DNA of 44,931 nt from Escherichia phage vB_EcoP_D, in the sequence record KY295893.1; one strand, given 5' to 3'. Below the pieces are notes generated by a model. The model searched no databases, had not been told where the DNA came from, and worked only from the letters and a program-made list of their open reading frames with translations. Shown in pieces: positions 3,150-17,316 of this stretch. The translations under genes were made by a program, and so were the position numbers. Numbering within the stretch: the stretch's first letter is position 1; the number at the start of each line of letters is the position of its first letter.

Positions 3150-3316
3150 TGGACCACCAGTTGTGCTCTAACACAATCCATAATGTAACGCTTCACTTCA
3201 TCTACGATTAATTCTTCGTGAGTCTTAGTCACCTTCGGAGAAGAAGGCTTGAGAATCATCTCAAGCATCTCCATACCCTCAAATGAAATCGTCGGTTTCT
3301 TCTTCGTCTGTACCAT
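3146..3316 (-). CDS. hypothetical small protein (start uncertain)
   Basis: Track ORF 3146..3328 begins at an apparent TTG; first ATG at 3316 lies inside the upstream gene. Weak RBS. Confidence 0.25.
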   Translation of the reverse strand: MVQTKKKPTISFEGMEMLEMILKPSSPKVTKTHEELIVDEVKRYIMDCVRAQLVVQ

Positions 3317-3494
3317 AGAGTTCTTCAACCTTCTCTTGGATAGCTTCTACAGAAAGACCAAGCTCTTCTGCATCAGCTAGTAAGGTATATGGCACTTCCA
3401 TGCCACAGGATAAAGTTTCAAAGATAGCTTCTGCTACCTCAACTGCACGAGTTGCCTTCATGCTATCAAAAGAAATCTGGTTCATCTTTGTCAT
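3279..3494 (-). CDS. hypothetical acidic protein
   Basis: 71-aa ORF with acidic C-terminus (EEETDDFI), packed between ligase and GNAT genes. Confidence 0.4.
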   Translation of the reverse strand: MTKMNQISFDSMKATRAVEVAEAIFETLSCGMEVPYTLLADAEELGLSVEAIQEKVEELYGTDEEETDDFI

Positions 3495-4413
3495 GTCTTA
3501 ATTCTCCAGCTTTGGGCAGACGAATGTTGCCCTTGCTTGAATCCTGAAGACCTTTTACTTCAAAGATTTTACCAATGACATTCAATCGTCCACCGTGTTT
3601 AATATCGTGGAACATCTGTTCTGCATCTGCATGAGTCCACCCTTTACCTAACATAGCTTTGATTGTCTTTCCTCCTTTCCATTTGAAAATGAGGTTAGCT
3701 ACCTTACCTTTGTACTTACCTTTGCCTTCTTCAAAGCCAATACAAGTAAGGTCATAAGTTACCTTACGGACTTCTTTAGTCTGACGATAACCTTTGTGGC
3801 CTGCTTCATAATCACAGTCCAGTTTAAACACAGCACCCTCTCGGCCTGCGTCTATTTGCTCTTGCGCAAACGCTTCAACTTCTCGCTCATTATGGCAAGG
3901 AGTAATAGGAAGGATAGCGTTGTACCCGCTAAGATGAGCGCCGATGCGACGATGTAAAGCATCGTAACGTTTGAGATAAGAAACATCAGTGAATCCATCA
4001 TGGAATGCCTTAATAGTTAACATATCGAAGAAGTCAATATACAGGTTGTCTTTAATCTGCTGGCCTATGAAATCAAGTGGCTCTGTGCGATTAGGGTTAA
4101 CTACTCCAGAAAGTGCTTCAAGGTAGACATCAACAGCCATAGATTGCAACTCACCGAGATAAATGCCAGTAGGGAAAGCTGAATAAGATTCTTCCAAGGT
4201 TTCCGTGTTAGCCAGTTTCTTTCCAGTGCGTCCAAAGACACCAACGACACCATCGTTGCGAACAACCACAGCACTAAATATCCCATCTCGTTTTACCTGT
4301 GCATAACATGGAAAAGTTAATTTCTTCTCAGGTACTTCACCGCGATGTTTCACCAGCATGAATGGGTGATTGCGGTGGTCTTCTGGAAGACCTAGGAATT
4401 GGAAGATATTCAT
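3466..4413 (-). CDS. ATP-dependent DNA ligase
   Basis: 315-aa ORF with the adenylation motif KxDG (KRDGIF); strong RBS GAAGGAGGTGAA before ATG 4413; size matches T7 gp1.3-class ligases. Confidence 0.8.
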   Translation of the reverse strand: MNIFQFLGLPEDHRNHPFMLVKHRGEVPEKKLTFPCYAQVKRDGIFSAVVVRNDGVVGVFGRTGKKLANTETLEESYSAFPTGIYLGELQSMAVDVYLEALSGVVNPNRTEPLDFIGQQIKDNLYIDFFDMLTIKAFHDGFTDVSYLKRYDALHRRIGAHLSGYNAILPITPCHNEREVEAFAQEQIDAGREGAVFKLDCDYEAGHKGYRQTKEVRKVTYDLTCIGFEEGKGKYKGKVANLIFKWKGGKTIKAMLGKGWTHADAEQMFHDIKHGGRLNVIGKIFEVKGLQDSSKGNIRLPKAGELRHDKDEPDFF

Positions 4414-7978: not shown

Positions 7979-8163
7979 GTAGGCCACTCCTTCAAGAAGG
8001 AGGACACCGCATCATGGAGGTTCTGTCTTAACCAATAGTCATCCCATTGTCTCACCTCCACTAGCTTCTCACCAGTTTTGTAATCATAGGCAACCCCAAT
8101 ATACTGTCTGGTGATTGCATTGTAGCTAATGTCCAGTTCAATTCGAGATTCAATAGTCGGCAT
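7891..8163 (-). CDS. hypothetical protein
   Basis: 90-aa ORF with ATG 8163 and RBS GGAG; its last 88 nt overlap the exonuclease start in another frame. Confidence 0.4.
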   Translation of the reverse strand: MPTIESRIELDISYNAITRQYIGVAYDYKTGEKLVEVRQWDDYWLRQNLHDAVSSFLKEWPTCDQTSTSELQYRKTIISSCGRLKVIESL

Positions 8164-8280
8164 AATTCATTCTCCAATAACTATTACGCAAAAGACCCTG
8201 CCTACACTAAGGCAGACAGGGCATTAGATGAGGTGAGCGTGATAGTCAACTAGGACTAAAAGAGGCTACACCTGCTATTA

Positions 8281-8652
8281 TCAAAACTCTTCCTCTTCGC
8301 TAACCGGAGCTTCCGGTGCAGACACTTCTACTGCCGGAGCTTCAGCTTCTTCAGCAGCTTTAACTTCTTTCACTGGTTTACCAGCAGCAATCCAATCCAG
8401 ATATTCAGCTACGATGTTAGCCTTACCGATCTGGGCTTTGTCAGCCTGCTCAGGGAAGCAAGCACGAGCGAACTCCAGACCATCAGCGAAGTTACCCATG
8501 CTGTCAATCTTAGCCTGAGCTTCTTCACGGGTATCGTAAGCCTTAGTACCAGCTACCAGTTGATCAGCTTCATCAACGATAATGAAAGACTCAACGGATA
8601 CCAGAGCAGCACCTTTAACAACACGGTTTACGATAGTTTCAATCTTGAACAT
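8281..8652 (-). CDS. hypothetical protein with acidic C-terminal tail (ends SEEEEF)
   Basis: 123-aa ORF, RBS AAGGAG; Ala/Glu-rich C-terminus ending in Phe. Confidence 0.5.
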   Translation of the reverse strand: MFKIETIVNRVVKGAALVSVESFIIVDEADQLVAGTKAYDTREEAQAKIDSMGNFADGLEFARACFPEQADKAQIGKANIVAEYLDWIAAGKPVKEVKAAEEAEAPAVEVSAPEAPVSEEEEF

Positions 8653-8702
8653 ATTAAATTCTCCTTTTGTTGGTTATGGCATTATCGCCGATTAAAATTC
8701 TT

Positions 8703-8725
8703 CTCTTCTATAGTGTCCAGTAAAT
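8703..8725 (-). promoter_or_regulatory. phage RNAP promoter, main subclass (ATTTACTGGACACTATAGAAGAG)
   Basis: Minus-strand match to the repeated consensus; +1 G at 8708; intergenic, upstream of 8281..8652. Confidence 0.6.
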
Positions 8726-8740
8726 ACCGGACACCGATTT

Positions 8741-8756
8741 GTCTCACACGTGAGAC
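8741..8756. repeat. 16-bp palindrome GTCTCACACGTGAGAC
   Basis: Perfect-arm palindrome GTCTCAC-NN-GTGAGAC, intergenic, ~15 bp upstream (transcript sense) of promoter 8703..8725. Confidence 0.7.
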
Positions 8757-8757
8757 T

Positions 8758-8976
8758 TTATAAAACTGTGTTCACCTGAGCAATGTCATGCGCCGGAAGC
8801 GATACGCCGTGGCGTTTCCCCGTAGCTGGGTCGCTGTAGTTCACCACGTGCTGTCCGTCGCGCCAGATGTAGTGCAGGTCGGCATATGTGTCCCCTTCAG
8901 AGAAGGAGTGAAAAGTGTTGCCGCCAAGAGTTGTAATTCCTTTCTTGCAGTGCAGGGTTACGATTTGTACTTTCAT
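8758..8976 (-). CDS. hypothetical protein
   Basis: 72-aa ORF with RBS AAGGAG. Confidence 0.5.
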   Translation of the reverse strand: MKVQIVTLHCKKGITTLGGNTFHSFSEGDTYADLHYIWRDGQHVVNYSDPATGKRHGVSLPAHDIAQVNTVL

Positions 8977-8985
8977 CCTTTCTCC

Positions 8986-9792
8986 TTAATATTCCGCGTC
9001 CTCATCCATCTCCGGTGCAGGAGTATCTTCTGCTTCAGGTACTTCCTGTGGAACAGACTCACCAGTATCCAGAGATTTACGATTAGCTGGGGTAGCATCT
9101 TCCTCGTCTTTCTTCTTAGCCTTCTTCCATTCAGGGTCTTCTTCACGAGCAGCTTTGATAATAGCTTCTACGTGAGAGCCAGCAACAGACAGGTTCTTAC
9201 CACGAGGTGTCTCGTTCAGGAAGTATTGACGTACCAAGTTAGCTGGGATGTCATCAAGGATTTCTTTGGTCAGCTTGTCGAAGGTGATATGACCTGTCAT
9301 AGACAGACCTTCCTCTTCTACCTGAGCCAGTACAAGCTTCTTCAACTTATCAGGCATACCGCCAAAGCCTTTCCAGTTAACATACTTGAAAGTACCATCA
9401 TCATTCTTGTCGCCAGAGCCAACCATAGTTGCAGTCAGACATTCACCGATAAAATCATCGAAGCCACCCAGCAACTCTTTAGGGTCAACTGCATTCAGGA
9501 ACTTAGTCAGTGTTGCCTTATCACCAGACTTCAGAGGCACAGCCATCCATTGTTCCATGCGAGAATCATCTTCATTCTTATCGTCGTCACCCATCAGGAT
9601 AATCTTAACAAGAACAAAGTTTGCTGGCTTCTTAACTTCAGTGGTATTACCTTTCTTAAAGATATCTTGGAAGGAACCAACATGAATGATGCCAGAGATT
9701 ACTGCTTCATGATCACCAACTTCAGGGTTCTTAAATACTTTACCTTCAGCTTTAGTAACCTGAGCACCAAAATCAAAATCACCACGTGCCAT
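8986..9792 (-). CDS. hypothetical protein, possible ssDNA-binding protein (acidic C-terminal tail ending DEDAEY)
   Basis: 268-aa ORF, RBS AGGAG; the acidic tail ending in an aromatic residue is shared with T7 gp2.5, but no sequence similarity was recognised, so the function is a guess. Confidence 0.4.
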   Translation of the reverse strand: MARGDFDFGAQVTKAEGKVFKNPEVGDHEAVISGIIHVGSFQDIFKKGNTTEVKKPANFVLVKIILMGDDDKNEDDSRMEQWMAVPLKSGDKATLTKFLNAVDPKELLGGFDDFIGECLTATMVGSGDKNDDGTFKYVNWKGFGGMPDKLKKLVLAQVEEEGLSMTGHITFDKLTKEILDDIPANLVRQYFLNETPRGKNLSVAGSHVEAIIKAAREEDPEWKKAKKKDEEDATPANRKSLDTGESVPQEVPEAEDTPAPEMDEDAEY

Positions 9793-9848
9793 TTATTTAG
9801 TCTCCTATTGTTACACTACACAATCATAGGCCGAACTAAGCCGACCTA

Positions 9849-9871
9849 TTGTTCTATAGTGTCCAGTAATT
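9849..9871 (-). promoter_or_regulatory. phage RNAP promoter, main subclass (AATTACTGGACACTATAGAACAA)
   Basis: Core identical to the other main-class promoters, one change in the upstream AT-rich part; +1 G at 9854; overlaps the stop of 9870..10169. Confidence 0.55.
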
Positions 9872-10169
9872 ACTTATGAACTACCTTAATACGTGCAATA
9901 GTATCGAGAGGGTAGACATAACTAACACATTCACCATCTTCAACCTCTTGTACATTTACACTAGCCATAGTGTCACAAAGTGAAAGGCTCAATTGATGAC
10001 AAGTTTCACCTTGAGTAAACTCTGGACCACGATAGGCATCTGCTTGTTCCACAGTAGTGATTGCTGTATCGTCTTCTTTAGCCAGACGAGTGTGACCTGC
10101 AACTTTACGCTGCTCTAGATCACGAAAGATGATACCTACATGTTTAGCTTGAATCACTTCTTCCATCAT
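9870..10169 (-). CDS. hypothetical protein
   Basis: 99-aa ORF, RBS AAGGAG, tandem ATG ATG start. Confidence 0.5.
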   Translation of the reverse strand: MMEEVIQAKHVGIIFRDLEQRKVAGHTRLAKEDDTAITTVEQADAYRGPEFTQGETCHQLSLSLCDTMASVNVQEVEDGECVSYVYPLDTIARIKVVHK

Positions 10170-10175
10170 AACTCC

Positions 10176-10553
10176 TTATTTAGTCAAGTTGTCCAGTTCT
10201 ATTTCCAGCATAACAATCTCTTTCTTCAGGCTGTCAGATGCAGCTTGATTTACAAGAGCAATTGATGCCTTGTTCTCTTCAAATTCAGCTTTCAGGCTGT
10301 CACGCTCTTGCTGGTGACGTGCCAGCATATCTTCTACCTCTTTGACTTGACGTGCATTTAGTTCATCACGAGATGCATAGTAGCGGTTATGACAGTCAAT
10401 CATTTGAGAACTACGATGTTCTTCAACTTTAACTTGCTCTGCCTGTACTGCTTCGATGCGAGCCTCAATAGCTTTGATAGCCTTGGACTTGAACTTATTA
10501 GCAAGACCACGAAAGTATTGAGCCACGAATACCAGAGTAGTTACCATAGACAT
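10176..10553 (-). CDS. hypothetical coiled-coil protein
   Basis: 125-aa ORF, RBS AGGAG; charged heptad-like sequence. Confidence 0.5.
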   Translation of the reverse strand: MSMVTTLVFVAQYFRGLANKFKSKAIKAIEARIEAVQAEQVKVEEHRSSQMIDCHNRYYASRDELNARQVKEVEDMLARHQQERDSLKAEFEENKASIALVNQAASDSLKKEIVMLEIELDNLTK

Positions 10554-10617
10554 ATTTATATCTCCTATATTTATTTAATTACCTATACTACCTTATAAAC
10601 CTAGATTACCTAGGCTT

Positions 10618-10640
10618 TCCTTCTATAGTGTCCAGTAAAT
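10618..10640 (-). promoter_or_regulatory. phage RNAP promoter, main subclass (ATTTACTGGACACTATAGAAGGA)
   Basis: Minus-strand consensus match; +1 G at 10623; lies in the 370-bp intergenic region downstream of DNA polymerase. Confidence 0.6.
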
Positions 10641-10922
10641 CATGTTAGACTAAATAAGTAGGAATAAGTTATTCATAAAGGCCACTCGTAAGTGACCTTG
10701 AGTATAACTCAGTCGTAGTTACCATCACAATCTGGGTCAATGCCAGAGAAAGCCCAGAATACTACCATAAATAATATGACTCCAAGAATAATAAAAGATG
10801 CCTGCATCAATCGTAACCCTCCTCTTCATCAGGTATATCTAATCGCATACTTCCATAGCAAGCAAGCATAAGGAATATAAGAAAGAAAGTGGAGAATAGG
10901 CAAACAATATCAAACCTGTCCA

Positions 10923-13469
10923 TCAGTGTGTTTCCTTCCAACTTGCACCAATCTTATACTCACCTGCCATCGGACAACGCATCTTCAGGTACTGACCCGC
11001 CCAAGTCATTGCGTCGGCAATGATATGCCCTGCACGGTGATAGCGACGCTGGCAATGAAGTACACCAGCATCAGCATCAACGCTAACGAGATTTGCAGCA
11101 GACCACATACGTCCTTCAGAATCCACATGAACACGTTTCTCCTCTGCATCGAACACTGCTTTCACAGCAGCCTTCTCTGTTTCGAACCCTTCTAAGGTGA
11201 AAGGCAAGTCGTAGTTGAGATACAAGACCTCATCTTCAGGGACTTCCATCTGGATTTCATCGTGCACGTTAGCTATACCGCAAGGGTTTCCCATGCTATC
11301 TAAGGCCACACCTTCCTTGCGCATCACTGCAAACGCCCTGACCAATGCGTATTTCATACACAGAGAACCAGTCATCTGGAGTAGTACGTTAAGCATAGTG
11401 TGCTCTTTAAGTTCACCACCAGACATACGGATGCGACCCCAATGACCATCAGGTGCTTGTAGGTAGCCAAACTTGTTACCTTGTGCGATAACATTCTCAC
11501 GAAGACGTGCAAGAGATGGTAGTTCAACCTCAAATCTTGCCACAACTTCCTCCATTTCTTCCTCAGTAACACCACATACTGCTGCAAGGTTAGCTATACC
11601 AGACCCATATAGGAAGGCATATATAAATGTCTTCGCCATGTCACGCTTAGGAAGACCAGCCTTCATTTGATTATGGGTGTGAATGTCACCATGCAGTACA
11701 ATATCTTGATATTCAGGGTCATTCATGAAGTGAGACAGTACACGTAGTTCAAGACCAGCACCATCACAACCAAGGATTAGCTTACCTTTACCGGCTATGA
11801 ATAAATCACGTAAAGGATACAAACCACGGGCAGGAATATTAACCACGTTACGATGACGCATACGGAACGTAGAAGTTCCAATACTAATAGCAATAGCTGG
11901 CACACGCCATTCTCCGTCATCCTTGTCTGACGTAGGCCAGCATCCGTACCTTTCGTAGTATTGCTGCGCATTGATTCCTAACTCCTTGTTAAATGCTACA
12001 GGTACAAGGCCGCGACACTTTCGTATACCAGCTTGCGAAGGCCACACCCCCTTCTGGTCGAAGGCTTCAACGTCACCACGGTTGAGGATCTGACCACGAC
12101 GGGATACGAGTATGTACCATGCAGCGATACCCAAGCACCAATCAGGGACTGTTTTACCTTCACGTGCGGCTCTCTCTTGCCATAAAGTAAGGGACTTTTC
12201 ATTTATCTTCCCACTCCAAGGCTTGGGTAATACGCCATGCTCATCGAGATGCGCTTGCTCGGTATCGTTAAATTCAACACCTTTCCATCCATAATCATAG
12301 AGCACTTGCTTAACTGTATCCCTGTTACCCAAGGGAATCTCTTCGAAAGTAACAGGCGAGTAAGCGCCAATCCACTTGATGCTTGGCGTGTCATTACGGT
12401 TTCCTCTAAGGTGAGGAAAGTCTTTCTTGACGCTAGCCGACCAATCACCAGACTTAGTAGTGACACTCCATACTGTCTTGCGATCTCCTCGTCTCTCGGC
12501 ATGAAGAAAGTGTGAGGGGTCAAGGACAGTAGGTATATTGTTGCTAGCTCCATACTCATTTGCGCGTTGGCATACTTCATTCTTTTCTTCCGGTTTAAAA
12601 GGTTTAGACTTGATACGCATAGGCATGTGCGGACGGAACGCTGCGACTGTCTCATCAATCTTAGCGTCCAATTCCTCGCATCGTGCTAATGCTTTATCTA
12701 TATCCAGACGGAATCCACGCTCGGCCTGACGGCTCATCTCCAGCGCCACAATGGACTCCATGTGGAAGGCTGTCTCAATACCTAGGCCAGTGCGTTTATT
12801 CACGCCACGGCGTTTGTGCTCCGTCCATTCTCCGTTAAATAGCCAGAGGAATAGGTCACGGCCTATCGCCACGTCCTCGCGTACACGATGTACCATGTGG
12901 TCAGTTAGTTTAGACCAATCCTCGTTCTCCGGCTTATAACGGCCTATACGAATGCCGTGCGCCTCAATTGAGTGAGGGGCTACGTTACCCATGCCTTTGG
13001 CGTATGCTTGCGGAGGGAGGCGTCTATCGGGGTTTAACAGGCGACTCATGACCAGCGTATCCATGACGCGTACCGGACACAGGTCAGCGCGGAGTCTGCC
13101 CTTGCCGCGTCTCTCGGTATAGTTAAAGCCTTTCCAGATATCAGGGAATGCTTTCTCAAATAGAAGGCCGTCGTACCCTAGGAAGTTCTGTGAGACGATG
13201 GCTTCGCAGTGCTTAAGGAAGTTAACACCGTCAACCAATGTTCCATCTTGATGGCCTTCCCATTCTTTTAGGCGTTCTCTTGCTTCAGGGTCACGCATCT
13301 CGTATGGGTCAAAGAAGAGGAACTCCTCTGTAGTAAGCAAATCCATGCAGCAAATGATGTGCACATCTTCGCGGTGGCCATATCGGATAGCATCCAGCAG
13401 GCCTTTAGCCTCAGAATCCATCACTAAGATGCGGCCTTCTGCTTCCTTCTTCCAATCAATTGATTTCAT
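10923..13469 (-). CDS. DNA polymerase, family A (T7 gene 5-like)
   Basis: 848-aa ORF from ATG 13469 (MKSIDWKK, RBS GGAG); track start 13502 is TTG. Size and polymerase-domain composition fit a T7-type DNA polymerase with proofreading domain. Confidence 0.9.
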   Translation of the reverse strand: MKSIDWKKEAEGRILVMDSEAKGLLDAIRYGHREDVHIICCMDLLTTEEFLFFDPYEMRDPEARERLKEWEGHQDGTLVDGVNFLKHCEAIVSQNFLGYDGLLFEKAFPDIWKGFNYTERRGKGRLRADLCPVRVMDTLVMSRLLNPDRRLPPQAYAKGMGNVAPHSIEAHGIRIGRYKPENEDWSKLTDHMVHRVREDVAIGRDLFLWLFNGEWTEHKRRGVNKRTGLGIETAFHMESIVALEMSRQAERGFRLDIDKALARCEELDAKIDETVAAFRPHMPMRIKSKPFKPEEKNEVCQRANEYGASNNIPTVLDPSHFLHAERRGDRKTVWSVTTKSGDWSASVKKDFPHLRGNRNDTPSIKWIGAYSPVTFEEIPLGNRDTVKQVLYDYGWKGVEFNDTEQAHLDEHGVLPKPWSGKINEKSLTLWQERAAREGKTVPDWCLGIAAWYILVSRRGQILNRGDVEAFDQKGVWPSQAGIRKCRGLVPVAFNKELGINAQQYYERYGCWPTSDKDDGEWRVPAIAISIGTSTFRMRHRNVVNIPARGLYPLRDLFIAGKGKLILGCDGAGLELRVLSHFMNDPEYQDIVLHGDIHTHNQMKAGLPKRDMAKTFIYAFLYGSGIANLAAVCGVTEEEMEEVVARFEVELPSLARLRENVIAQGNKFGYLQAPDGHWGRIRMSGGELKEHTMLNVLLQMTGSLCMKYALVRAFAVMRKEGVALDSMGNPCGIANVHDEIQMEVPEDEVLYLNYDLPFTLEGFETEKAAVKAVFDAEEKRVHVDSEGRMWSAANLVSVDADAGVLHCQRRYHRAGHIIADAMTWAGQYLKMRCPMAGEYKIGASWKETH

Positions 13470-13674
13470 AGATTGCTCCAAAGTATTTAACCCTATAACC
13501 AAGTCCTAATAAAGAATTAGGTGTTAGATGAGGATAGTTATATGCTAATTCATTGTGGTACTTATCAAACAAAGCAGCCTCTTTCTTAGACCTGCAATGC
13601 CCACACTTACCATCAATACGACTGCGATAACCTTTACCGCAAGAGCAAACCTTACTGACTTTAATAGCTTTCAT
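13456..13674 (-). CDS. small Cys-rich (zinc-ribbon-like) protein
   Basis: 72 aa from ATG 13674; CSCGKGY...CGHC cysteine pairs; overlaps the DNA polymerase start by 14 nt. Confidence 0.45.
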   Translation of the reverse strand: MKAIKVSKVCSCGKGYRSRIDGKCGHCRSKKEAALFDKYHNELAYNYPHLTPNSLLGLGYRVKYFGAIYEIN

Positions 13675-13799
13675 ACATTGCCTCTGTTTCGTAGTAGTCA
13701 TCTGAACGTTCAGGTTTTGAGTTCATTGAATCTTGGAAATCCCAATCAGAATCATAATCACGTGGCATAATGCACCTCCAATCAATATGATGAAAGGCT

Positions 13800-13815
13800 G
13801 TCTCACGTGTGAGAC
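13800..13815. repeat. 16-bp palindrome GTCTCACGTGTGAGAC
   Basis: Same arms as the other copies; intergenic; no promoter nearby. Confidence 0.7.
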
Positions 13816-13825
13816 AACCCTTTAC

Positions 13826-14035
13826 TTATCGACTGCGTGTTACAGTTAATTTCTGGCCCATGTATTTGCCTTGGTGTGGCTCCCAAGTTGCCTCTTTGAT
13901 AACTTGCTCGCGCGTCAGGCTATTCTTCTTGGCCTCAGCCATAGTTAACTGTGCGAACAGGAAGGCTTGGTTAGTAATCTTGGCTTGCAGGTCTTCATGA
14001 CCATCGAACATTTTAAGACTATGTTTATTCTGCAT
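13826..14035 (-). CDS. hypothetical protein
   Basis: 69-aa minus-strand ORF in the block between primase/helicase and DNA polymerase. Confidence 0.45.
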   Translation of the reverse strand: MQNKHSLKMFDGHEDLQAKITNQAFLFAQLTMAEAKKNSLTREQVIKEATWEPHQGKYMGQKLTVTRSR

Positions 14036-14243
14036 GTTTCACCATAAAGCTGCCGATTACATTAAACTCCTCACGGAACTCTTTTTCAGTCAAATGACCG
14101 AAAAGTTCCATCTGAAAACTTGCACTAAGACTGGCACCTATTAATGCAAACCCCTTTGAAGTACCATAGGGCTTAACACCATCTGGTGCTACAACTGCAT
14201 AGCATTTATGAGGTCCACGCATATAAATTAATACCTTAGTCAT
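14025..14243 (-). CDS. hypothetical protein
   Basis: 72-aa minus-strand ORF, tightly packed with neighbours. Confidence 0.45.
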   Translation of the reverse strand: MTKVLIYMRGPHKCYAVVAPDGVKPYGTSKGFALIGASLSASFQMELFGHLTEKEFREEFNVIGSFMVKHAE

Positions 14244-14253
14244 GATTAACTCC

Positions 14254-14943
14254 TTAGATATTCACGTATGTTTCTTCAGTAACGATAGGTAGGTACAGTA
14301 ATTCTTCACCATTTAAGATGTGAAGACCTTTCAACCCTTGCTTACGAATAATGCCTTCTATAGTGTCGGCAAAATGCTTATTAATTACACGTCGTTGCGT
14401 ACCTTGTTCTGTGATTGCATGGTCAACATCCATGATTCGCACAGGTACATTTGGATGCATCATGGCTTCTCCAATCTTTACCATAGCTTGTCCTGTGGAT
14501 TTACCCAATGCACGAGTATTAAACTGTGTAACACCTAATGCAGTGCCACATTGCTTAATCATCTCACTTTGAGTCTTACCAGTGATTACATTGCGACGCT
14601 CTTTCTTGAGTGTGGTTTTCTTTTCTGCCATGTACTCTGCTAGTGTTTGAGGACCAGCACCATAATAAAGAGGAGCTAGGAAATTCTTAAGCATCTGGCG
14701 AGCACATTTATCGCAAACCTCATCATGTATGCACTTACATTGATTGTTTATCTCTACAATCTTTTCAAGATATTTATGTGCTGTCTTCTTGTGGTAATAT
14801 TGCTTAACACCACTGCGATATTCTACATAATACAGGTTCTCACCTACAAAGGTTACAACACCACGGCAAAGATAGCGACTTGAAACTTTCTTGATGTTGC
14901 GTACAAAGTCACCTACATTCAACACTAAGTTATACATAATCAA
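14254..14943 (-). CDS. hypothetical protein with CxxC...CxxC cluster
   Basis: 229-aa ORF (start could be 14943 or 14937); contains NNQCKCIHDEVCDKCARQ. No family recognised. Confidence 0.5.
   Translation of the reverse strand: MIMYNLVLNVGDFVRNIKKVSSRYLCRGVVTFVGENLYYVEYRSGVKQYYHKKTAHKYLEKIVEINNQCKCIHDEVCDKCARQMLKNFLAPLYYGAGPQTLAEYMAEKKTTLKKERRNVITGKTQSEMIKQCGTALGVTQFNTRALGKSTGQAMVKIGEAMMHPNVPVRIMDVDHAITEQGTQRRVINKHFADTIEGIIRKQGLKGLHILNGEELLYLPIVTEETYVNI
14353..14375 (-). promoter_or_regulatory. promoter-like sequence inside a gene (ATTTTGCCGACACTATAGAAGGC)
   Basis: Core GACACTATAGAAG conserved, upstream part divergent; lies within ORF 14254..14943, so function is uncertain. Confidence 0.35.
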
Positions 14944-14976
14944 TCTCCAGTTATTTAATGTACTTAATAAGAGCCT

Positions 14977-14992
14977 GTCTCACAGGTGAGAC
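14977..14992. repeat. 16-bp palindrome GTCTCACAGGTGAGAC
   Basis: Intergenic; flanked by CCT...AAGCC exactly as the copy at 36882. Confidence 0.7.
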
Positions 14993-15009
14993 AAGCCCTG
15001 ATAAATACA

Positions 15010-15171
15010 CTAGATAAGGCGTGTTACAATAAAGAACATTGACATAAGAAAACCAGATGCAACGATAAGTTTCACAGCTTTCTTGAATCCATATCGTGCA
15101 GCATAATCTGCGATCACAAGCATGAATAGGATCTCAATACCGATATTCAATACTGGTTTAATAATTTCCAT
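15010..15171 (-). CDS. hypothetical small membrane protein
   Basis: 53-aa hydrophobic ORF (MEIIKPVLNIGIEILFMLVIADYAARYGFKKAVKLIVASGFLMSMFFIVTRLI), RBS AGGAG; ATG overlaps the primase/helicase stop (TAATG). Below the track's 60-aa cutoff. Confidence 0.3.
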   Translation of the reverse strand: MEIIKPVLNIGIEILFMLVIADYAARYGFKKAVKLIVASGFLMSMFFIVTRLI

Positions 15172-17159
15172 TAAAACTCCTGTTCATCGTCAAAGGTTGT
15201 CTCTTCTATAGTGTCCGGTAAATCAGGTACTTCTTGTTGCCTTGCTTCACCTGTATCAAATGACTTAGTACGGGCTTGTGGTTCTAGCAGTCGGCCCGTA
15301 GCGATGTCACCCTTAAGCATAATCTTAGTACCAGAGTAAATCCCTTGATCCCTATCTTTAACACAGGAAATATAGGTAGTAGTTCGCTCATCTAGTGTCT
15401 CTGCCCTCGTGTTCCTTTCGATGCCCAAGGCATATGATGCCCAAAAGCCGATAGCGCCTGAGCCTCGGAAGTCAGAAAGGATAACCTCGCCACCTTCTTC
15501 GTGTTGGGTACGGTTTGCCGGAGGACGTGTAAGGTGAGAGACAAGGAATATAGTAACTGGGTGTCGGTCTTTGATAGTACCAATCCGCTTGACGCATTCA
15601 TCAAGTGCACCAACCTTCCCACCAAAAGCACGCTCATCTAATTTAATCCCCGTTAAGTTATCAATGATGATATTAGAAATGCCCATAGCCTCAAACTCTA
15701 GGCAAGTTTGCTCTACCTTCTCCATAGAATAGTCGCCTTCTAGGTCAGCCACAAATAGCTTTCCTGTATCAGCCACATAATCAATGGCAGCGTTAGCTTC
15801 TTCCTCGGTGTAGTCGAACACCTCACGGTATCCGTCTTCTTTCGGGTCGTTGGTTGGCGGTAACTCAATACGCTTATCAATCCACTTGCCGATAAAAGCA
15901 CGGGACACCTTGACCATTGGGTCTTCTGTAGAAATGATGCCTACAGATTCACCGTGTTCTTCAATGAGGTGCTTAACCACTTCGCGAAGGAACTCAGTCT
16001 TACCTACACCAGAGCCTGCACCTACAATGATAAGCTGGTTCTTACGAATACCTAGCGTTACCTTGTTCAGCTTAGGCCAAGGCCATGATAACCCTTGCTC
16101 TGGACGTGCAGCCTTGAGCTTATCCCTTTGAGATGCGATAGATTTAATCTGGCTACCAAAGACTTCATCAGATGACTTGGCATTAAACCAAGCATCAACA
16201 AACTCTTTAGCCTTGCCAGCCATCAATGCCTTGTTAGCATCTTTGCAACCAGAGGGATATTCGAGGATGTAGGATTTGCCAGGAAACAGGCGAGCAGCTT
16301 GTTGGTTCTGCTTCTGCCCTACCTCATCCCCATCAAAACCCCATATAATCTTCTTGAATTGGGCGATATGCTCACGGTTCTGCACTATCTCTTCAAGGCA
16401 AGACTCGCCTTTGTTGACAGACCATACATGGTATGGCTGGCCTTCCCACTTAGTACCCTTGGCAGAATCAAGGAGCATCTGCTGCGCTGCTAGTGCATCA
16501 AGTTCACCACCTACAATAAGCAAGCAATCCTTTCGTCTCCCCTTGTCTAACACGTGAGACAAAGTATTCATACCGAAAAGATCTTGCATACCAAAGAGTT
16601 TACCTAAATGACCAAACTTAAAATCTTTAGGTAATGTGCGACACTTAGCGCCTACTAGCTCACCTTTTTCGAAGCGTGGATAGTAATGCCGTGAGACTCT
16701 ACCCTCTTCATCGTGCCCAACACGTACATCATACAATGCGCAAATGTCGCCGCGAATGTGTCTGGAAACAAGGTTCTTACGCTTAAGCGTGAGGAACCAT
16801 TCAACATCAAGTTTCCACTCTGCTTCTTGCTCTGCCCTTTCTTGTTCATTCATGACCTCCCAACGGTCTTTCATACGCATACCACCAAGTGCGATGGCGC
16901 GTAGCTTAGGGTCGCTAATCTTCCCTTCCTTCTCCATCTCTTTAAACTGAGAAGGTGTATATTTGATGTTTCCAGTGATAGGTAACTCTGTTATCTCGAT
17001 GCCACCTTCCGGCTTATGGTAGTAGGGTCTGCCATTATCATGGAAGTGACCACGGTTACAGTATCCTGCCCCGTCGTCAAAGATCATTAAATGATTGCCA
17101 GTAATATCATGTCCGTTCTTTTGGCAAGCAGGACACGGTACATTCTGAATAATAGCCAT
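15171..17159 (-). CDS. DNA primase/helicase (T7 gene 4-like)
   Basis: 662 aa; N-terminal Cys4 zinc motif (CPACQ...C..GH), central primase region, C-terminal Walker A GAGSGVGKTEF; acidic C-terminus ending DDEQEF; RBS GGGAG. Confidence 0.9.
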   Translation of the reverse strand: MAIIQNVPCPACQKNGHDITGNHLMIFDDGAGYCNRGHFHDNGRPYYHKPEGGIEITELPITGNIKYTPSQFKEMEKEGKISDPKLRAIALGGMRMKDRWEVMNEQERAEQEAEWKLDVEWFLTLKRKNLVSRHIRGDICALYDVRVGHDEEGRVSRHYYPRFEKGELVGAKCRTLPKDFKFGHLGKLFGMQDLFGMNTLSHVLDKGRRKDCLLIVGGELDALAAQQMLLDSAKGTKWEGQPYHVWSVNKGESCLEEIVQNREHIAQFKKIIWGFDGDEVGQKQNQQAARLFPGKSYILEYPSGCKDANKALMAGKAKEFVDAWFNAKSSDEVFGSQIKSIASQRDKLKAARPEQGLSWPWPKLNKVTLGIRKNQLIIVGAGSGVGKTEFLREVVKHLIEEHGESVGIISTEDPMVKVSRAFIGKWIDKRIELPPTNDPKEDGYREVFDYTEEEANAAIDYVADTGKLFVADLEGDYSMEKVEQTCLEFEAMGISNIIIDNLTGIKLDERAFGGKVGALDECVKRIGTIKDRHPVTIFLVSHLTRPPANRTQHEEGGEVILSDFRGSGAIGFWASYALGIERNTRAETLDERTTTYISCVKDRDQGIYSGTKIMLKGDIATGRLLEPQARTKSFDTGEARQQEVPDLPDTIEETTFDDEQEF
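15201..15223 (-). promoter_or_regulatory. phage RNAP promoter inside the 3' end of the primase/helicase gene (ATTTACCGGACACTATAGAAGAG)
   Basis: Perfect main-class consensus; +1 G at 15206; 35 nt upstream of the primase/helicase stop. Confidence 0.5.
16545..16560. repeat. palindrome-like element GTCTAACACGTGAGAC inside the primase/helicase gene
   Basis: One mismatch from the intergenic palindrome family; encodes SHVLDKG in-frame. Confidence 0.5.
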
Positions 17160-17162
17160 AAC

Positions 17163-17291
17163 TTAGAACTCCCACGCTGCGCGTTTAGATGCACGGTCAC
17201 GGACAGGTTTATTCAGCTTCTTGCCTTTCTTCTGCCCTTCTTCCATGTCAAAACGGTTAGCTTTACGGGTCATCTTCTCAAAGTTACGCAT
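17163..17291 (-). CDS. small basic protein, T7 gene 1.1-like
   Basis: 42-aa ORF MRNFEKMTRKANRFDMEEGQKKGKKLNKPVRDRASKRAAWEF, RBS GGAG; resembles T7 gp1.1 as I recall it (MRNFEKMT...LNK...RDR). Below track cutoff. Confidence 0.55.
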   Translation of the reverse strand: MRNFEKMTRKANRFDMEEGQKKGKKLNKPVRDRASKRAAWEF

Positions 17292-17316
17292 GGTTAAATC
17301 TCCAAAGTGAGTTAAT

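Follow-up and report, generated by a model that had tools for sequence, protein, structure and literature searches.

We analyzed the 44,931-nucleotide sequence of Escherichia phage vB_EcoP_D (KY295893.1; this whole stretch is called the window here, and positions are counted along it) and found that gp16, a 268-residue protein of the replication region, is very probably the phage's unrecognized SSB (the protein that binds single-stranded DNA), as judged from its modeled fold, its family and its gene context. Together with gp9 and gp18, gp16 is one of three proteins that end in an acidic tail with a terminal aromatic residue; in RefSeq, the three are labeled DNA primase/helicase (gp9), hypothetical protein "16" (gp16) and hypothetical protein (K1E gene 18) (gp18). 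The explanation that best fits the observations as a whole, and that we consider likely, is that gp16 is an SSB whose OB-fold core is joined to a helical domain particular to the family and to a flexible acidic tail with Tyr as its last residue, that the gp9 and gp16 tails are docking signals, and that gp18 is a third client. An SSB annotation is absent among the 59 coding sequences of this phage's RefSeq record, and because no other SSB is annotated there, this absence is a point for gp16. The replication genes all lie on the minus strand and, in K1E numbering, follow the order RNA polymerase (7), primase/helicase (9), DNA polymerase (13), 15, 15.5, 16, 17, 18, 19, exonuclease (20) and endonuclease VII (21). 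The gp16 protein occurs in 215 phage records, and the 60 of these that we sampled all label it "hypothetical protein".

The AlphaFold2 model of gp16, built with 29 homologues in the alignment, had a mean predicted local distance difference test score (pLDDT) of 78 and a predicted template modeling score (pTM) of 0.71. Five predicted strands (residues 26 to 47, 57 to 66, 80 to 86, 118 to 129 and 135 to 144) form a barrel with a helix (residues 94 to 102) between strands 3 and 4, which is the arrangement that defines the OB fold, and the solved structures closest to the model are OB proteins that bind single-stranded DNA (ssDNA). The helical domain that follows has four invariant residues (T175, P183, G205 and S206) and can also be aligned to ORF21 of phage phiKMV. 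At its end, gp16 carries the flexible acidic C-terminal tail found in OB-fold SSBs. The initial annotation had proposed the 268-residue protein or the 123-residue gp18 as the SSB candidate, had anticipated no sequence likeness to gp2.5 of phage T7, and had asked for a structure prediction of both, with the lack of a suitable fold in either as the refuting outcome. That outcome did not occur: an OB barrel was predicted with good confidence for gp16 and none for gp18, and the proposal holds for gp16, given its predicted barrel, its ssDNA-binding structural neighbors, its position between polymerase and exonuclease and the SSB-type tails of its relatives. The anticipated lack of likeness to T7 gp2.5 was borne out as well (hhalign of the 68-sequence gp16 profile, probability 0.2%), with gp2.5 belonging to phrog_112 and gp16 to phrog_862.

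The match of gp16 to phrog_862, a group of "unknown function", had an E value of 2.2e-60 and covered residues 10 to 258. In Pfam, no family was matched by gp16 or its 68 full-length relatives, and a profile search of all PDB sequences with the gp16 family returned nothing relevant at E values up to 10. Three known families were tried and rejected. For the bacterial SSBs (PF00436) there was no Pfam match, and the gp16 tip, ..DEDAEY, is not of the DDDIPF type; for the SSB of phage N4 (phrog_743), hhalign gave probabilities of 0.5% with the single sequence and 1.9% in a profile-profile comparison with a 10-sequence N4 SSB alignment; and DUF669, which has been mentioned for phiKMV-like Aeromonas phages, matched no family member in Pfam. 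The modeled fold and these searches suggest that gp16 represents an OB-fold family distinct from gp2.5, bacterial SSB and N4 SSB, with no detectable sequence relationship to them and with an added helical domain.

Next, we looked into the wider gp16 family. A profile search against 1.8 billion representatives gave 79 relatives, 68 of them full-length (50% clustering), and all 68 match phrog_862. An acidic stretch with an aromatic residue at the end is present in 44 of the 68, and 11 have an end of the type known as the C-terminal motif of bacterial SSBs (DDDIPF, DDEIPF, DDEVPF, DDDLPF or DDDCPF); in one family member, the tail can be aligned with the C-terminus of NCBIfam's model for bacterial SSBs. 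Seven distant members (P0199, P0201, P0206, P0209, P0212, P0218 and P0236) have no acidic tail and end in another conserved peptide, PPGF/YxYDPATNSF, which may serve for docking to some other partner (PPGFxYDPATNSF). In the relatives with available context, the gene lies directly after that of DNA polymerase and before that of the 5'-3' exonuclease; the gp16 gene is likewise between these two, as are those of P0214 and P0194 (members of about 20% identity) and of phiKMV ORF21.

The phiKMV protein (NC_005045, 11043-12092; 349 amino acids [aa], hypothetical; "PHA02030") aligned with gp16 over 194 columns (hhalign probability 99.25%, E value 5.5e-20) and matched phrog_862 (E value 9.2e-95); these sequence comparisons indicate that ORF21 is a true homologue of gp16. 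Its branch occurs in 954 phage records, including those of Klebsiella KP34-like and Acinetobacter Fri1-like phages, nearly all labeled hypothetical. A single record, that of Klebsiella phage AttikonH2, labels the phiKMV-type branch "single strand DNA binding protein"; this label is automated and is the only precedent, and our literature searches found no SSB assignment in SP6/K1E/K1-5-like phages or Molineuxvirinae. From gene order only, Gp21 of phage LUZ19 would be the equivalent of phiKMV ORF21. In a published study, LUZ19 Gp21 ranked in the top two early/middle phage proteins by abundance, and the authors stated that no function could be predicted for it (PMC3604761); its high abundance fits a stoichiometric ssDNA coat.

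We then evaluated the acidic-aromatic ends. All three open reading frames (ORFs) lie on the minus strand and have the C-termini described in the initial annotation (gp9, ..TFDDEQEF; gp16, ..EMDEDAEY; gp18, ..SEEEEF), and its statement that the T7 helicase and SSB carry acidic tails ending in Phe was confirmed from the T7 sequences (gp2.5, ..EEADEDGDF; gp4, ..DWSNDTDF). An end was counted when the last residue was F, Y or W and at least three of the preceding six residues were D or E. The frequency of this pattern in internal 7-mers of the 59 annotated proteins was 0.0040, corresponding to 0.24 such ends expected, while four were observed in the 59 proteins (gp9, gp16, gp18 and DNA ligase; P(≥3) = 1.8e-3). 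The same pattern ended none of the 156 ORFs of at least 40 aa on the non-coding strand. In T7, it identified gp2.5, plus gp4 once relaxed to two acidic residues, and no others; because these are the two proteins with known polymerase-binding tails, the criterion is specific. The net charge of the last 20 residues, −9 in both gp16 and gp9, is the most negative in the proteome. Two further ends were considered and rejected. That of the ATP-dependent DNA ligase (3466-4413, minus strand), ..RHDKDEPDFF, comes immediately after ligase motif VI (RHDK), and relatives have V, A, E or Q in place of the terminal aromatic residue; judging from these sequences, it is probably not a docking tail. A 71-aa protein encoded 3' of the ligase (3279-3494, minus strand) ends ..EELYGTDEEETDDFI, and its acidic end is kept but its aromatic residue is not, the relatives ending ..DYQY, ..ETDY, ..DEQDY, ..TDD and ..DSE.

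The ends were tabulated over 42 related viral loci (helicase, n = 33; gp16 homologues, n = 42; gp18 homologues, n = 35). The terminal aromatic residue was kept in 30/33 helicases, 40/42 gp16 homologues and 33/35 gp18 homologues, at identities down to 29 to 45%, and in the exceptions an aromatic residue was still found one or two positions from the end (in the three exceptional helicases, Phe at position −2 or −3). All 29 aligned gp16 homologues have the tail ..xxE[YF], and the gp18 residue F123 does not vary among 43 sequences. Several changes in the ends were shared among proteins of the same genome. In a Klebsiella clade (L027-29), the helicase, gp16 and gp18 all end in Tyr, and in uligo and Njord (L041 and L042), which are phages of P. 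syringae, each of the three proteins extends one or two residues beyond the Phe (..ETFD/..EEVFE/..EAFEG and ..KTFE/..EQTFD/..EESFS). The helicase and gp16 share an EQEF end in L040 and L043 and have TQEF and EQEF, respectively, in L036, and an acidic-aromatic end is missing from both the helicase and the gp16 homologue of phiKMV. A very distant T7-like contig encodes a gp16-family member ending ..EEFDDEVPF and a primase-helicase ending ..EPEDPGF. Such joint changes are the pattern predicted by a shared, co-evolving receptor.

The third tailed protein, gp18, had no OB barrel in its predicted structure. No Pfam family was matched by gp18 or by 43 of its relatives, and an assignment to UPF0339/DUF1508 (YegP-like) was rejected, as neither the family profile nor the fold was found. 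Its acidic tail with terminal Phe, its location in the replication region and its own promoter-like site would suit an SSB acting instead of or besides gp16, which we regard as extremely unlikely; lacking the OB fold, gp18 is not an SSB. Since its terminal Phe is invariant and follows the clade-specific changes of the helicase and gp16, these sequence patterns suggest that gp18 is probably a third client of the docking site of gp9 and gp16. We also observed proteins of 84 to 91 aa just downstream of distant gp16 homologues, where BLAST gives no gp18. They have ..ADEDF or ..EAETF as their ends and MSNxVQxVFGKFAVE at the N-terminus, which is reminiscent of gp18 relatives, and they are probably divergent gp18 homologues missed by BLAST.

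By analogy with T7, gp16 would coat the lagging-strand ssDNA, and the C-terminal peptides of gp9 and gp16 (an acidic run plus the terminal aromatic carboxylate) would be docking signals for one shared partner, most likely the gp13 DNA polymerase. Docking would hold together the polymerase, the helicase and the SSB-coated lagging strand, the free gp16 tail probably sitting in the protein's own DNA-binding cleft when DNA is absent, and gp18 could be an accessory factor or a competitor at the same docking site. T7 gp2.5 binds polymerase and helicase by means of its tail and terminal Phe, removal of the Phe abolishes the interaction between gp2.5 and polymerase, and the gp4 tail also binds polymerase. 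The contact of the tails with gp13 is suggested only indirectly, by the joint tail changes within genomes. Across the fingers and palm, gp13 and T7 gp5 are 34% identical, and the gp13 thumb region between the aligned blocks is about 80 aa longer.

Several points weigh against this account, some bearing on the SSB role of gp16 and others on tail docking. All functional assignments made here, that of an SSB role to the gp16 family included, draw on modeled structure, gene neighborhood and sequence comparison. PrgE, an OB-fold protein of plasmid pCF10, binds double-stranded DNA (dsDNA) besides ssDNA, which is atypical (PMC11137577). In addition, 65 of the 68 family representatives match NF046043 (best E value 1.3e-63), an NCBIfam model named "phage replication initiation protein, NGO0469 family", under which gp16 would be an origin-binding or primase-like initiator. 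However, gp16 scored 18.1 bits (E value 1.5e-3), far under the curated cut-off of 75 bits, and aligned over residues 20 to 106 only, the first half of the OB domain; phiKMV ORF21 matched with an E value of 6.5e-4. Members above the cut-off span the whole 171-position model, and two that passed it, P0214 (127.8 bits; ..DDEVPF) and P0238 (116 bits; ..DDEDGDEW), have SSB-type acidic tails. T7-type phages, moreover, begin replication from RNA-polymerase transcripts without need of an initiator protein, and the predicted gp16 barrel is nearest to ssDNA binders. The name appears to go back to a 2007 annotation of NGO0469, a gonococcal prophage gene, from weak BLAST similarities to the Rep of banana bunchy top virus, a plant nanovirus (26% identity over 109 aa), and to a primase of phage A2 (32% over 87 aa), with no experiment (PMC1931599); the initiator name was repeated in 2025 without a test, and we found no experimental basis for it. 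The name conflicts with the fold and tails of the family and is likely a misnomer, and we hold an initiator role for gp16 to be very unlikely.

A further point of this kind comes from LUZ19 Gp21, expression of which arrests the growth of P. aeruginosa and lowers transcription and translation by 20 to 25% but does not lower DNA synthesis (PMC3604761), an effect that does not single out an SSB. An OB-fold protein whose main role lies elsewhere, in host shutoff or in strand annealing or recombination mediation beside the exonuclease, could account for this effect of Gp21 alone; the gp16 gene is just upstream of a cluster of exonuclease, endonuclease VII and "DNA repair protein", and T7 gp2.5, going by its RefSeq product name, combines the roles of SSB and annealing protein. 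These roles are nevertheless compatible with SSB function, and phage SSBs have also been reported to be toxic on expression in particular genetic backgrounds. The tail of gp16 is common to, and co-changes with, that of the replicative helicase, which points to the replisome, and the genome holds no other SSB candidate. We therefore consider it rather improbable that the main role of gp16 is a different one.

Regarding docking, a charge scan of gp13 in 30-aa windows gave maxima of +5/+6, whereas in T7 it recovered both known docking sites, with values of +11 and +7, and within this sequence scan gp13 had no basic patch like the thioredoxin-binding loop or the front basic patch of the T7 enzyme. 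The SP6 helicase (L012, 3257-5242) is the one clear exception to the joint changes, as it ends ..ENTQEFNG, two residues past Phe, while its gp16 and gp18 homologues end in Y and F, and the joint changes represent only two to four independent evolutionary events. The tails could have functions other than polymerase docking, either as mimics of the host SSB C-terminus that capture the host's SSB-binding proteins, in binding to each other's core domains (helicase to SSB), or as general acidic DNA-mimic or solubility tails. The end of gp16, ..PEMDEDAEY, resembles that of E. coli SSB (..PPMDFDDDIPF), a true DDDIPF end occurs in distant gp16 relatives, and the T7 gp2.5 tail binds the helicase too; the polymerase shows no clear basic receptor patch; and gp18 is strongly acidic overall and takes the place that small anti-host proteins (gp5.5 to gp5.9) have in T7. 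However, the pockets of host proteins that bind SSB require a Pro-Phe end, which is absent from gp9, gp16 and gp18, and this counts against host mimicry. The terminal aromatic residue is strictly kept over more than 60% sequence divergence, and three unrelated proteins of the same phage change in concert; both observations speak for a single receptor that the phage encodes and that co-evolves with the tails, and against a conserved host pocket or an unspecific effect of charge. Functions that exclude polymerase docking thus seem unlikely to us.

A broader scheme, which we consider possible but doubtful, takes the acidic-aromatic peptide as a phage-encoded address label for one replisome hub with at least three unrelated carriers. 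Here gp18 would be a small, abundant protein that does not bind DNA and competes with the helicase and SSB tails, acting as a dedicated regulator of polymerase docking or exchange or as a decoy, and phrog_862/NF046043 would be a large, misnamed SSB family with interchangeable end peptides. If this is true, the end peptide would decide the partner of the SSB: the replisome of the phage itself for the EQEF type, the interactome of the host SSB for the DDDIPF type, and another for the PPGFxYDPATNSF type or the Ala/Pro-rich end of phiKMV, and a docking regulator of the gp18 type would have no known T7 equivalent.

The positions of the genes, protein parts and promoter-like sites are given in Table 1. 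The phage belongs to the genus Vectrevirus (Autographiviridae, Molineuxvirinae; K1E/K1-5/SP6 group), and bases 8000 to 17300 are 100% identical to those of Escherichia phages vB_EcoP_C and vB_EcoP_R. The gp9 protein has the bifunctional architecture of T7 gp4, with a Toprim primase domain (Toprim_2, residues 218 to 312) and a DnaB-like helicase domain (Pfam DnaB_C, 1.5e-14, residues 357 to 604) in one chain, and it matches phrog_239, "DNA primase/helicase" (2.7e-186). SP6-type promoter-like sites (..GGACACTATAGAAG) occur 12 times on the coding (minus) strand versus 0.44 expected, and both gp16 and gp18 have a strong ribosome-binding site and an SP6-type promoter-like site of their own.

Table 1. 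Positions of the tailed proteins, their parts, the presumed receptor and promoter-like sites (window coordinates unless a locus is named)
Feature	Position	Strand	Remarks
gp9 primase/helicase, 662 aa	15171..17159	-	Zn-finger, Toprim and DnaB-like helicase domains
gp9 acidic tail, last ~20 residues, ..EVPDLPDTIEETTFDDEQEF	15174-15233	-	
gp13 DNA polymerase, family A, T7 gp5-like; presumed tail receptor	10923..13469	-	Pfam DNA_pol_A 5e-23; phrog_17
gp16, 268 aa, candidate SSB	8986..9792	-	
gp16 residues 1-18, conserved peptide MARxFDFGAxV	9739..9792	-	pLDDT <50, flexible; F6, G9 and A10 invariant in 29 sequences
gp16 residues ~19-146, predicted OB-fold barrel	9355..9738	-	pLDDT 82-94
gp16 residues ~147-230, family-specific helical domain	9103..9354	-	helices 148-161, 176-190 and 207-218; pLDDT ~85-92
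gp16 residues 231-268, disordered linker and acidic tail, ..PEAEDTPAPEMDEDAEY	8989..9102	-	pLDDT 38-57
gp18, 123 aa	8281..8652	-	
gp18 residues 1-98, small, very acidic alpha/beta protein	8359-8652	-	
gp18 residues 99-123, disordered Ala/Pro/Glu-rich tail, ..SEEEEF	8284-8358	-	
SP6-type promoter-like site TACTGGACACTATAGAAC	9851..9868	-	59 nt upstream of gp16 start; then strong AGGAGA ribosome-binding site
SP6-type promoter-like site TACTGGACACTATAGAAG	8705..8722	-	53 nt upstream of gp18 start
Further SP6-type promoter-like sites	10620-10637, 15203-15220, others	-	
gp18-like small tailed proteins	L033 4527-4787; L034 1658-1912; L037 3561-3836; L038 6364-6639		

Two observations concern neighboring features. 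A perfect 16-nt palindrome, GTCTCACGTGTGAGAC, is located at 8741-8756, right after the gp17 stop codon and ahead of the gp18 promoter, and could form a hairpin serving as a terminator or RNA-processing site. The terminase large subunit is annotated as two pieces with a homing endonuclease gene between them (RefSeq NC_047807, 8170-10814).

Some SP6/K1E/K1-5-like phages are candidates for therapy directed at E. coli K1, and the phiKMV-, KP34- and Fri1-like phages are their close relatives; their records hold no recognized SSB. If gp16 is the SSB, these phages have every member of a minimal replisome of the T7 type (RNA polymerase, primase/helicase, polymerase and SSB), and the abundance of LUZ19 Gp21 would be explained. 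The annotation of roughly 215 + 954 phage records, almost all "hypothetical", would be corrected. The joint tail changes predict a common docking site, with gp18 as a new client of that site. Moreover, phage SSBs trigger several bacterial defense systems, and the identity of the SSB gene matters for reading escape mutants.

The known systems that we compared share parts of this arrangement. T7 (Studiervirinae) is of the same supergroup and has a homologous helicase and polymerase. Its gp2.5 (phrog_112, "Gp2.5-like ssDNA binding protein") and gp16 both combine an OB core (predicted in gp16) with an acidic tail that is disordered and has an aromatic last residue, and the helicases of both phages have a tail of the same kind. 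T7 gene 2.5 has its own phage promoter (phi2.5), and gp16 has a promoter-like site. T7 is without a third tail carrier, whereas the K1E-like phage has gp18. Functionally, the SSB arrangement would be as in T7, the new elements being the SSB family and the third tail carrier. The bacterial SSB of the E. coli type follows the same logic, with an OB core, a disordered linker and an acidic tip whose terminal aromatic carboxylate is a docking signal, but bacterial SSB structures were only weak Foldseek matches to gp16 (E values 0.08 to 0.4), and the gp9, gp16 and gp18 tails lack the Pro-Phe end.

In phiKMV, ORF21 is about 19% identical to gp16 and occupies the same polymerase-exonuclease position, but its tail is long, rich in Ala, Pro and Val, and without an acidic-aromatic end, which is also missing from the separate phiKMV helicase. 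PrgE (PDB 8S4S/8S4T), the ssDNA- and dsDNA-binding protein of pCF10, shares 12 to 14% identity with gp16 and gives no sequence-level match. It has 144 aa, lacks the helical domain of gp16, has no reported conserved acidic-aromatic tail, and is dispensable for conjugation. Its N-terminal tail touches the neighboring subunit on ssDNA (PMC11137577), which for residues 1 to 18 of gp16 provides an analogy only. The N4 SSB (gp45, 265 aa) is similar in length to gp16 and, like it, is a phage protein unlike other SSB families. Its N-terminal pattern "GGG - strand - GK - strand" looks like that of gp16 by eye, a likeness for which homology is unsupported, and its tail is basic (..SLFGKK), in contrast to the acidic tail of gp16.

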